Source: Promethearchaeota archaeon (GTDB lineage Archaea > Asgardarchaeota > Lokiarchaeia > Sigyniarchaeales > SOKP01). Taken from it: a DNA stretch of 64,000 bases. The position numbers and the translations under genes are program-made. The stretch lies in contig JAHPZA010000003.1 of NCBI GenBank assembly GCA_019058445.1, forward strand, positions 282,810-346,809, given 5' to 3'. Shown piece after piece: positions 46,864 to 49,420 of the stretch (position 1 is its first letter; the number at the start of each line of letters is the position of its first letter). A model generated the notes under the pieces. The model was not told where the DNA came from, searched no databases, and saw only the letters and a list, made by a program, of their open reading frames with translations.

Positions 46864-46921
46864 ATATCCAGAACCCTTGCTGGGTTGTCATCGTGCGTCT
46901 CATTTTTTTTCCTTTTTTTAA
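46864..46921 (-). promoter_or_regulatory. 3' half of a SECIS-like element (copy 3) split by IS insertion
   Basis: Minus strand reads ...A-rich loop-AG-ACGCACGA-TGAC-AACCC-AGCAA-GGGTT-CTGGATAT, the same layout as the 3' halves of copies 1 and 2. Confidence 0.7.
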
Positions 46922-48325
46922 GTAGAAAACCATATCTTTTAGGAAATGGATGATCTTGTATAAAAATTATTAATCCCCTTCAGTTCTTACTTTTTTATAG
47001 AGCTTCAGTCAAATATTTATAATAGGATATCAAAAAAGGAGGATAACTCTTGAAAATTAACAAAACAATGAAGCTTCGGCTCTATCCGACCAAAATCCAA
47101 CGAGAACTGTTGAATAAGACATTTGGCTGTTGCCGTCTTCTATGGAATCAGATGTTAGCGGAGCGCAACGAGGTATTTCAAGAATTTAAAGAGAACTCCG
47201 AAACCTTGAGGAATTATAAGTATAAAAAAGAAAAGGATTATAAACAAGAATTTGAGTTTATGAAAGAGGTCGATAGCAAGGCTTTACAATCTACAACCCT
47301 ATACCTAATAGAGGCATTCAATAATTTTTTTAATGGGTTAAAGGTGTCCCGAAAAGTAGGATATCCGAGGTTTAAATCAAAAAAAAGTAAACAATCCTAT
47401 ACTACTTATAACATCAATAGCAATATTAAAATTGATTTTGACCTAAAACATATTAAGCTCCCAAAAATTAAAAAATGGATAAAGTATAAGGATGATAGGA
47501 GTTTTACCGAGCCAATTCGTCATGTAACCGTTTCGAAAACCAAGAGCGGACACTATTACTTGGCCATTTTGATTGAAAAAGAGCTTGATATCTCACCTCT
47601 AACGGAAATCCACGAAGATCGTATAGGAGCATTTGATATGTCAGCCACAAGGTTTCTGATTAGTGAAACTGAAGACTTTTCCAATCCTAGGTTTTATAGA
47701 TCCTCAGAAGCGAGGTTAAAGCAATTGCATCGCCAATTATCTCGCAAAAAAAAGAATTCTCAAAATCGACTGAAAACCAAGCTGAGACTTGCTCGAATGT
47801 ATCAAAAGATTTGGTATCAAAAATATGATTGGACACATAAAACGACCCTTAAACTAGCTAATAAATATGATGTAGTAGTCTTAGAAGACCTTAACATCCA
47901 AGGAATACAAAAATTTAACAGCGGTCTATCTAAATCCGTGACATTAGATTTTTCATGGCATCAGTTTAAAACATTGCTAAAATATAAACTTGAATGGCGA
48001 GGAAAGCACTAACTAGAGGTGAATCGTTTTTTTCCTTCAAGCAAATTATGCTCTGTATGTGGGCATAAAAATATTGATTTAACATTAGCAGAACGCGTAT
48101 GGGTATGTACTGAATGCGGTACACAACATCATAGAGATAAAAATGCGTCAAGCAATCTAAAAAGAGAGGGTATTCGTCTCTTACAAGAAAGAGGAATTAA
48201 AGTCATTATTTGACCTACCGTTGGGACGACGGGAAGTTACGCTTGTGGAGATCTTGTAAGACACCCTTTAAGGTGCTTTGGTCAGGGAAACAAGAATCCA
48301 GATCCTATATGGACTGGTAGTTCAA
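46922..48325 (+). mobile_element. Non-autonomous IS200/IS605-family (IS1341-type, tnpB-only) element
   Basis: Preceded by TTTAA (46917-46921); left-end hairpin ACCATATCTTTTAGGAAATGGA; right-end hairpin then GGTAGTTCAA ending at 48325; no tnpA. Removing it rejoins two halves of one RNA structure. Confidence 0.85.
47050..48213 (+). pseudogene. tnpB: TnpB RNA-guided nuclease with in-frame TAA at 48010-48012
   Basis: KLRLYPT, FGCCRLLWN, GYPRFKSKK, RuvC motifs AFDMS/VLEDL/HRDKNA, Zn ribbon CSVC..CTEC. ORFs 47050-48012 and 48019-48213 are in the same frame, separated by one TAA. Confidence 0.9.
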
Positions 48326-48345
48326 GCAAGATTCATTCTAAACTG
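48214..48345 (+). ncRNA. Putative TnpB omega-RNA (right-end scaffold plus about 20-nt flanking guide)
   Basis: Right-end sequence CCTACCGTTGGGACGACGGGAAGTTACGCTTGTGGAGA...GAAACAAGAATCC...GTAGTTCAA, typical of tnpB elements. Boundaries approximate. Confidence 0.6.
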
Positions 48346-48354: not shown

Positions 48355-48393
48355 TTATAAATATTTATTAATTGCATCCGTTAGTATATCTAT
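48355..48393 (-). pseudogene. C-terminal remnant of a second peroxiredoxin-like gene
   Basis: Encodes IDILTDAINKYL*, versus IEILTDAIDKYL* at the end of 48592-49107; lies immediately upstream of SECIS copy 3. Confidence 0.8.
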
Positions 48394-48477
48394 TTAGGAT
48401 TTATTAATTTAAAATATGGAAACAATTTATTGGTTAAAATGATTTAAATGTTTAATAACACTCATTAATTTTATAAA

Positions 48478-48542
48478 CCTTAATCCTTGGCTAGGATGTC
48501 AGCAAATGTCTAAAGTTTTTACATTTGCCTCATTCGTTAAGG
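48478..48542 (-). promoter_or_regulatory. Eukaryote-like SECIS element (copy 1), 3' UTR of the UxxU gene
   Basis: CCTTAA-CGA-ATGA-G-GCAAATGT-AAAAACTTTAG-ACATTTGC-TGAC-ATCCT-AGCCA-AGGAT-TAAGG: AUGA/GA core, perfect 8-bp helix II, apical A-run, closing helix I. Confidence 0.9.
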
Positions 48543-48591
48543 AAAGAATTTAAAATTTCAGTTAAGGAATGGTGTATCGATTATCATTTAC

Positions 48592-49107
48592 TTATAAATA
48601 TTTATCAATCGCATCAGTTAATATTTCTATTGTGGGTCTATCTTCTTTACTACCTATATAATACCAAACTATTTCTCCATTTTTTTTAATAAGTACTTTA
48701 GCAGGAAGAGCATTATTAACTTGTAAATCATCATGACCATCGGTTTTTTCTGTTACAAACATATTATATGATTTAGCTATTTTTCCGCCTTTATCAGGGA
48801 TAGTCGTGAAATTAAAATTATTAACTTCTTTCATCTTTTTCAATCGTCTAGTACTATCTTTTGCTATTGCTATTAACTTTACGTTGCGTTTTTCGAACTC
48901 TGACATATTTTTGGTTAAGTATTTAAAGTGTTCTATTCAATATACTCACCATCCCCCTCTAAAGAAGTCGATTAAAACCCCTCGATGGTTCTCAAGCATA
49001 ATCGCTAAATTTGCTTCATTCCCATCAATGTCGGTTGTATCGATAGTAGGAGCTTTGGAACCAATAGGTAATCCTTTATTAGGTATAGAAATATGTAAAT
49101 CTGTCAT
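48592..49107 (-). CDS. AhpC/TSA peroxiredoxin-like selenoprotein with UxxU motif (171 aa)
   Basis: From ATG 49107: MTDLHISIPNKGLPIGSKAPTIDTTDIDGNEANLAIMLENHRGVLIDFFRGGW-TGA-VY-TGA-IEHFKYLTKN, continuing in frame into ORF 48592-48906. The TGAs (48946-48948, 48937-48939) occupy both Cys positions of the family motif F(Y/F)RGxWCPxC; SECIS downstream. Confidence 0.92.
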
Positions 49108-49202: not shown

Positions 49203-49270
49203 TCCTTAATCCTTGGCTAGGCCGTCAGCATACGTCTATATTTTATACGTCTGCCTCATTCTATTAGGAA
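49203..49270 (-). promoter_or_regulatory. Eukaryote-like SECIS element (copy 2)
   Basis: TTCCTAAT-AGA-ATGA-G-GCAGACGT-ATAAAATATAG-ACGTATGC-TGAC-GGCCT-AGCCA-AGG-ATTAAGGA; 7 of 8 helix II pairs, with compensatory changes relative to copy 1. Confidence 0.88.
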
Positions 49271-49306: not shown

Positions 49307-49420
49307 TTATCATTTAAATCTTAGTTCCATGAAAAATACAAATCTTCGACAGTTAGGGCAATAATAGTATCCACTCGTATTCTCTTGTATTGTATGTCCA
49401 CACTTTTGGCATATTATCAT
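49307..49420 (-). CDS. Zinc-ribbon microprotein, candidate C-terminal selenocysteine (36 aa + U)
   Basis: MIICQKCGHTIQENTSGYYYCPNCRRFVFFMELRFK-TGA-TAA. Aligns without gaps to the 46119-46271 paralog, with TGA opposite Cys39; SECIS core 50 nt after the TGA. Confidence 0.7.

Follow-up and report, generated by a model that had tools for sequence, protein, structure and literature searches.

Introduction

What marks out the selenium biology of Lokiarchaeia, according to the literature, is a peroxiredoxin-like (Prx-like) selenoprotein with a U-x-x-U redox box, together with a eukaryote-like SECIS element. Mariotti et al. (2016, Mol Biol Evol, PMC4989117) described Loki PrxL.1, a protein with two selenocysteines (Sec, U), a proposed diselenide and no other Cys, as well as further one- and two-Sec PrxL homologues in a related metagenome. 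In the same work, the lokiSECIS of the PrxL, VhuU and HdrA-VhuD genes was described as a 9-bp stem with an 11-nt apical loop, acting over up to ~2 kb in HdrA-VhuD pairs, and the tRNA-Sec gene, with an intron in its T loop, was found on the strand opposite to EFsec at a distance of ~6 kb. Prx-like selenoproteins were later reported in 43% of the Sec-using Asgard archaea (Huang et al. 2024, PMC11227280), and the prokaryotic selenoprotein table of a 2026 AEM review (PMC13188914) includes the entry [quoted passage not shown]. The family, the motif and the RNA signal were thus already described in Lokiarchaeota in 2016. A UxxU box is also present in SelL, a Prx-like2 selenoprotein of animals and marine bacteria (Shchedrina et al. 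2007, as cited in PMC4989117).

We analyzed a 64,000-nucleotide stretch of a Promethearchaeota archaeon (assembly GCA_019058445.1, contig JAHPZA010000003.1, positions 282,810 to 346,809), from here on the window, in which an earlier note made from the sequence alone had pointed to a Prx-like gene with a double-Sec UxxU active site. As UxxU PrxL proteins had been described in 2016 (PMC4989117) and tabulated in 2026 (PMC13188914), the finding is correct but already known; the note's own statement that Prx-like selenoproteins occur in Lokiarchaeia agrees with PMC4989117 and PMC11227280. The repeated Sec/Cys switching and the SECIS replacement described below are modest additions and do not constitute new biology.

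Results

A Peroxiredoxin-Like Gene Split by Two In-Frame TGA Codons

The PrxL gene is encoded on the minus strand, from an ATG at 49107-49105 to a TAA at 48594-48592, in a frame of 171 codons whose sole interruptions are two in-frame TGA at codons 54 and 57 (Table 1). The sequence around them reads FFRGGW-TGA-GTA-TAT-TGA, in such a way that codons 53-57 give the redox box W-U-V-Y-U, exactly as the earlier note had read it, with TGA at both redox positions and a frame otherwise intact for 171 aa. The note was also right in that the gene is hidden from the ORF caller: the list made with table 11 splits it into a 59-aa N-terminal piece and a 104-aa piece (48592..48906) which is only its C-terminal part. 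In the public protein database, this protein and its close relatives are likewise found as pieces of 104-114 aa only; the name of one is "peroxiredoxin family protein [Promethearchaeota archaeon]". Public annotation still cuts PrxL in this way, which shows that Asgard genomes still need to be annotated with selenoproteins in mind.

The complete protein contains no Cys at all, and 62 of 77 PrxL homologues have none outside the redox box. Its N-terminus is hydrophilic, and no N-terminal hydrophobic segment is present.

Table 1. Features of the PrxL locus and Sec machinery of the genome. Positions without a prefix are those of the window; prefixed ones refer to contigs of the assembly.
Feature	Position	Strand	Evidence
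PrxL-type selenoprotein gene (peroxiredoxin-like, AhpC/TSA fold), 171 codons + TAA	48592..49107	-	translation with TGA=U; Pfam
UGA codon 54, first putative Sec of the W-U-V-Y-U redox box	48946..48948	-	TGA in 79/79 homologues
UGA codon 57, second putative Sec of the W-U-V-Y-U redox box	48937..48939	-	TGA/TGC/TGT among homologues
SECIS#1, Loki-type, now in the PrxL 3' UTR	48478..48542	-	fold and pattern; matches published lokiSECIS
Tail B, diverged duplicate of the last ~14 PrxL codons + stop (46 nt)	48355..48400	-	blastn double match of the G052 locus; alignments
5' half of ancestral SECIS#0 (ATGA + 7 nt of stem)	48326..48336	-	comparison with the intact G052 SECIS
IS200/IS605-type element with interrupted tnpB, inside SECIS#0	46911..48325	+	blastn vs G052; junctions; NCBIfam
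3' half of SECIS#0 (loop, 3' stem strand, GA, extra hairpin)	46864..46909	-	colinear with G052
36-codon zinc-ribbon ORF ending K-TGA-TAA, candidate C-terminal-Sec microprotein	49310..49420	-	conserved upstream neighbour of PrxL
SECIS#2 (core 49259-49225), 3' SECIS of the mini-ORF	49204..49268	-	pattern; kept in G052 with pair-preserving changes
SepSecS	C6:1056455-1057600		E 1e-113
Selenophosphate synthetase (SPS), one in-frame TGA (classical Sec codon)	C10:463853-464689		in-frame TGA
EFsec	C6:1064111		best NCBIfam family selB, 242 bits, >100 bits above EF-Tu
PSTK candidate	C4:303842		archaeal PSTK model end to end, 1e-43, below curated cut-off
tRNA-Sec, UCA anticodon	C6:1059763-1059917	-	weak Rfam tRNA-Sec match, 28 bits, below curated cut-off

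The TGA Codons Are Conserved and the Second Alternates with Cys

With the read-through protein as query, a six-frame search at a threshold of E<=1e-10 covered 161 genomes of the class and gave homologues in 92 of them. Every match spanning the redox box has TGA, around 80 with one, 37 with two (the window gene included) and two with three; the three matches free of TGA are fragments that fall short of the box. In the 79 homologues that were extracted, the first box position is always TGA and the second is TGA (37), TGC (22) or TGT (20), so the box is either W-U-x-x-U or W-U-x-x-C. No C-x-x-C form was found in the 161 genomes of the class, nor among the near-length proteins of a large protein database. 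These counts, which the earlier note had proposed as a check, do not bear out its view of UxxU as a rare motif as far as this clade is concerned, as it is carried by about 37 of about 120 homologues of the class and was published in 2016. The only two full-length entries of PrxL homologues in that database (P0007, P0008) appear as W-W-x-x-C, the gene caller having read TGA as Trp; such entries are a trap when Cys-type homologues are counted.

The nearest orthologue, in a genome of the same genus (G052), is 87% identical and keeps TGG-TGA-GTA-TAT-TGA exactly, and the dN/dS between the two genes is 0.235, that is, the gene is under purifying selection. With the TGAs conserved and this dN/dS, neither an assembly error nor a chance pair of nonsense mutations can explain the gene, and it is not a long-dead pseudogene. 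In particular, the suspicion that TGC or TGT is really present at these codons did not turn out to be justified, because the TGAs are conserved over dozens of genomes.

A maximum-likelihood tree was built with 77 PrxL proteins (36 UxxU and 41 UxxC, with U residues treated as gaps), a sample that contains all the two-TGA matches but just about half of the one-TGA matches. At least 11 changes between UxxU and UxxC are needed on it, at least 6 of them on strongly supported branches alone, and a single UxxU clade was rejected by the AU test (delta lnL 271, p 1.5e-58). In the tree, the window gene pairs with its G052 orthologue, both of them UxxU, in the midst of UxxC genes, one of which belongs to the same genus, and in two other genera tandem pairs of a UxxC gene followed by a UxxU gene, each with its own SECIS, are common. 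These repeated flips offer a natural series in which the benefit of a diselenide can be set against that of a selenenylsulfide.

The box residue before the second redox position is Tyr or Phe in 23 of the 36 UxxU proteins and in none of the 41 UxxC proteins, and His in 7 and 32 of them, respectively. A link between this Tyr/His choice and the state of the second position was nevertheless dropped, as it is not significant with only 6 phylogenetically independent contrasts. A second PrxL gene of the genome from which the window comes (C6:495892-496296, L022) has the box U-P-Y-C and is followed by a lokiSECIS.

A Probable Thioredoxin-Type Redox Box on a Peroxiredoxin-Like Fold

Against Pfam, the read-through protein gave AhpC-TSA (PF00578) with an E-value of 6.2e-22 over positions 1-123 of the 124 of the model, and Redoxin with 7.7e-15. 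An AF2 model on 41 sequences had a pLDDT of 92.3 and a pTM of 0.89, and places residue 54 just ahead of a helix (55-66), which is the canonical C-x-x-C position; the Prx-like thioredoxin fold claimed in the earlier note is thereby upheld. The top Foldseek matches were BCP, PrxQ and AhpE, with TM scores of 0.77-0.81 (0.80 for Bcp4), and ResA reached 0.69. By sequence, the closest PDB entries were the archaeal BCP peroxiredoxin 2cx3 (2.5e-10) and ResA 4nmu (1.7e-9), and the NCBIfam matches, all below their cut-offs, were ResA (the best, 2e-13), thiol peroxidase (2e-11) and "SelL-related redox protein" (7.5e-8).

In the alignment to the A. pernix BCP (2cx3), the Ser of S-P-V-C is the counterpart of the first U and the peroxidatic Cys that of the second, whereas in the alignments to ResA (4nmu, 3c71) both U fall on the Cys pair of W-C-x-x-C. 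PrxL fails the motif of Prx proper, Pro-x3-Thr/Ser-x2-Cys plus Arg, as Arg50 is found at the Pro position, U54 at that of Thr/Ser, and Pro135, invariant in 41 PrxL sequences, at that of the catalytic Arg. By its position, Pro135 would be the cis-Pro that lies opposite the redox box in thioredoxin folds. From the box, Pro135, Arg50 and the fold, the protein is therefore read as a Prx-fold scaffold that would carry a thioredoxin-type redox box.

Regarding the known systems, the protein resembles Loki PrxL.1 in its AhpC/TSA fold, the U-x-x-U in place of C-x-x-C, the lack of other Cys, the lokiSECIS and the class of its host. The fold, the Sec box, the Cys-free rest, the lokiSECIS and the Sec machinery of the host that characterize PrxL (Mariotti et al. 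2016) are all found here, and there is no difference in kind from PrxL.1; the local differences are a SECIS that is a copy of the neighbour's and nearest tree relatives of the U-x-x-C type. SelL also has a Prx-like thioredoxin fold, a UxxU box and a single SECIS for two UGAs two codons apart, and a diselenide has been proposed or shown for it, according to the work cited in PMC4989117. However, it belongs to another subfamily: in the comparison with the AhpC/TSA and SelL families suggested by the earlier note, the SelL_rel_redox profile (NF040769) gave 32.2 bits against a cut-off of 120, and no match to AhpC-TSA_2 (PF13911) was found in PrxL with Pfam at E<=0.01. SelL also differs in having eukaryotic or bacterial SECIS and in its host range. 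The W-C-x-x-C of ResA/TlpA (PDB 4nmu, 1st9) aligns residue by residue with W-U-V-Y-U, also with a conserved Pro opposite the box, but ResA is a membrane-anchored, extracytoplasmic, Cys-based protein; PrxL has no anchor, its fold is nearer to BCP, and it gave 50.6 bits with the ResA profile NF002854 (cut-off 170). BCP/PrxQ proteins (PDB 3hjp, 2cx3) provide the best matches in both structure and PDB sequence, and PrxL differs from them in its catalytic site, where the Prx residues Pro, Thr and Arg are missing.

With these data, the gene is very probably the orthologue of the Lokiarchaeial PrxL.1, encoding a cytoplasmic, Cys-free protein of 171 residues in which the UGAs would be decoded as Sec and which would likely act as a diselenol/diselenide oxidoreductase. 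Both UGAs would be decoded by Sec-tRNA(Sec) and EFsec under the direction of a single lokiSECIS of eukaryote-like type located in the 3' UTR, and the resulting W-U-x-x-U box would sit at the N-terminus of helix alpha-1 of a peroxiredoxin/BCP-like thioredoxin fold. The C-x-x-C geometry at the helix N-terminus in the model and the precedent of SelL, as cited in PMC4989117, suggest a cycle between diselenol and intramolecular diselenide as the most likely chemistry. An oxidoreductase rather than a peroxidase is the most likely function, and PrxL would then work on a partner or substrate in the manner of thioredoxin or ResA, unlike a classical peroxiredoxin.

The SECIS Element Behind PrxL

The element now present in the 3' UTR, SECIS#1, starts 49 nt past the PrxL stop with helix I, in which 48542-48537 pairs with 48483-48478. 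Its core (48533-48499) has AUGA, a perfect stem with 9 of 9 bp formed, an 11-nt A-rich loop and GA, which has a small extra hairpin on its 3' side. This design is identical to that of the published lokiSECIS, and PrxL presumably uses the element, which is the sole SECIS in its 3' UTR. No Rfam family matches SECIS#1 when the whole window is searched at gathering thresholds. The AUGA lies 58 nt from the stop, compared with a median of 12 nt in the homologues (range -4 to 58). The SECIS that the earlier note had placed about 50 nt past the stop does exist, but it is a copied replacement and not the original one of PrxL, as explained below.

The lokiSECIS pattern is found 3' of the stop in most of the PrxL homologous loci, and only once over all the opposite strands combined. 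When 55 PrxL SECIS elements, chosen by having at least 7 of the 9 stem pairs, were aligned, changes on both sides were detected in all 9 pairs, with a covariation score of 0.465, versus 0.26 for shuffled alignments and at most 0.17 when the partners were slid. The percentage of pairing in the stem is biased because of the way in which the elements were chosen; the closing helix and the extra hairpin, neither used for selection, are paired in 64% and 84% of the cells. In the PrxL lokiSECIS, the extra hairpin (5 bp) comes after the GA core and before the closing helix resumes with its 3' strand, and both partners have changed in 3 of the 5 pairs. Together with the closing helix it would give a three-way junction.

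A Candidate Sec-Tipped Zinc-Ribbon Microprotein Upstream, with Its Own SECIS

Upstream of PrxL lies a mini-ORF (frame 49420-49313) with the zinc-ribbon motifs C-x-x-C ... C-P-x-C, followed by SECIS#2. Among 28 relatives, 23 end in K-U-stop, 22 of them with a SECIS 27-49 nt downstream, and the remaining 5 end in K-C-stop, none of them with a SECIS. The mini-ORF is located directly upstream of a PrxL gene in 13 of the 28 loci. A family of Sec-tipped zinc-ribbon microproteins was not found in those published lists of Asgard selenoproteins that were consulted. In one relative (genome G151), Sec is also present in the second C-x-x-C. Paralogues of the zinc ribbon without terminal Sec or Cys, with acidic or longer tails, were also detected (L084, L091, L092, L116, L118, L122), and in relatives they are found near PrxL genes or Sec-tipped mini-ORFs.

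The UxxU PrxL and the Sec-tipped microprotein might be partners in a redox relay of their own, based largely on selenium, in which the terminal Sec of the latter would exchange electrons with the diselenide of the former, a proposal that we regard as doubtful. If it were true, the six or more switches between Sec and Cys that the second position of PrxL has undergone would represent a tuning of this couple to selenium supply or redox niche.

Loss and Replacement of the Native SECIS

The PrxL gene of G052 has kept an intact SECIS, which begins 19 nt past the stop. In the window, the two halves of the corresponding element, SECIS#0, are separated by a 1.4-kb IS200/IS605-type element that is missing in G052 (blastn). 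Its boundaries are approximate to a few nt, and its interrupted tnpB is represented by two ORFs (47050-48012 and 48019-48213; NCBIfam IS200_TnpB, 1.3e-74). Between the PrxL stop and the relic of SECIS#0 there is a block of ~237 nt composed of a copy of the unit found downstream of the upstream mini-ORF, plus tail B. The copied unit is 76% identical to the original behind the mini-ORF over ~190 nt, and 85% identical over the SECIS itself (SECIS#1 versus SECIS#2). Judging from this alignment, SECIS#1 is a copy of the SECIS#2 of the neighbour, and tail B would be the relic of a lost second copy of the PrxL gene.

The simplest history would be a tandem duplication of the segment [SECIS - 5' UTR - PrxL], followed by the loss of most of the second gene, the order covering these two steps alone; a spare SECIS would therefore have been left behind the surviving PrxL. 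The native SECIS was destroyed by the TnpB insertion sequence, and PrxL would now depend on the duplicated SECIS of its upstream neighbour. The locus documents how a mobile element can remove a lokiSECIS and a copy from a neighbouring gene can take its place, which would imply that these signals are modular and position-tolerant.

Two other arrangements were considered and ruled out. The position of the SECIS in G052 excludes that this genome lacks a 3' SECIS and uses the upstream SECIS#2 from the 5' UTR of PrxL; SECIS#2 is not a 5' UTR element of PrxL because it belongs to the upstream mini-ORF. A degenerate second PrxL gene upstream of SECIS#2 was discarded as well, as no PrxL-like frame is present there.

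Alternative Explanations

An unlikely reading is that PrxL is a genuine peroxidase, with the second Sec as peroxidatic selenol, like in the bacterial TxxU Prx selenoproteins, and the first as the resolving one. It would agree with the best structural matches (BCP/PrxQ/AhpE), with the second U lying on the peroxidatic Cys of the A. pernix BCP and with the match to the thiol peroxidase model, and the overall fold, nearest to true peroxiredoxins (Bcp4 above ResA), therefore leaves room for some peroxidase activity. On the other hand, 3 of the 4 Prx active-site residues are gone (Arg50 for Pro, U for Thr/Ser and Pro135 for Arg), and the box is of the W-C-x-x-C kind of ResA and thioredoxin, precisely the criterion by which Mariotti et al. 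(2016, PMC4989117) divide Prx-like proteins from Prx.

It is quite improbable that PrxL died recently in this genome, with its native SECIS destroyed, the copied one non-functional and translation stopping at codon 54. The split of the ancestral SECIS by the TnpB element, the unusual distance of its replacement and the loss of the neighbouring gene copy, of which the tail alone is left, are in line with such a death, and a very recent one would be compatible with the dN/dS found because this value averages over the whole divergence. But the frame has remained open over its 171 codons, with both TGAs in place and a low dN/dS, SECIS#1 has a complete stem with canonical AUGA and GA, and lokiSECIS elements are reported to work over up to ~2 kb in HdrA-VhuD pairs (PMC4989117). 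The chance that the TGAs are assembly errors, or that TGA is read as Trp or Gly genome-wide, is practically negligible: the two database entries translated with W would fit it, but all 79 homologues, taken from independent assemblies, have TGA at the identical place, the second position alternates with Cys codons only, a covarying SECIS is found behind each gene, and the full Sec pathway is present, with an SPS that itself contains the classical Sec codon.

The Sec Machinery of the Genome

The assembly has 10 contigs that add up to 4.6 Mb, a G+C content of 31% and a completeness of 92.6%. The earlier note had named tRNA-Sec, SelD/SPS, PSTK, SepSecS and EFsec as the components to look for; all are present (Table 1), so the objection that the genome might lack Sec machinery is answered. 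The tRNA-Sec gene was found by searching next to EFsec, from which it is separated by 4 kb; it had not been found in the whole genome with ARAGORN, with and without intron mode, or with the Rfam tRNA-Sec model. Standard searches miss it because it appears to have two introns, one in the T loop (7+31 nt) and a second insert of ~35 nt in the D arm. This differs from the published Loki tRNA-Sec, with an intron only in the T loop. Inspection by eye showed a 9-bp acceptor stem, a G73 discriminator and a 4-bp T stem, and after in silico removal of the two inserts ARAGORN called tRNA-SeC(tca) in 1041 of 3040 variants and another tRNA type in none. An ARAGORN "tRNA-SeC" at C1:27020 was discarded, as it is a 7/5 type-II tRNA with an intron.

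The genes for SepSecS, tRNA-Sec and EFsec are clustered in a stretch of less than 9 kb (C6:1056455-1065010; L001, L010, L020). Several other UGA-containing ORFs of the genome are followed by a lokiSECIS: two VhuU-like ORFs with D-C-U-L-S-C-A-A-H (C3:242100 and C3:156350; L123, L124), tandem paralogues with R-S-U-S-G-T-F-C and no Pfam match, with an element behind each (C10:78200-80000; L126, L127), and a 156-aa ORF with G-C-U-U, also without a Pfam match (C6:633500-634100; L128).
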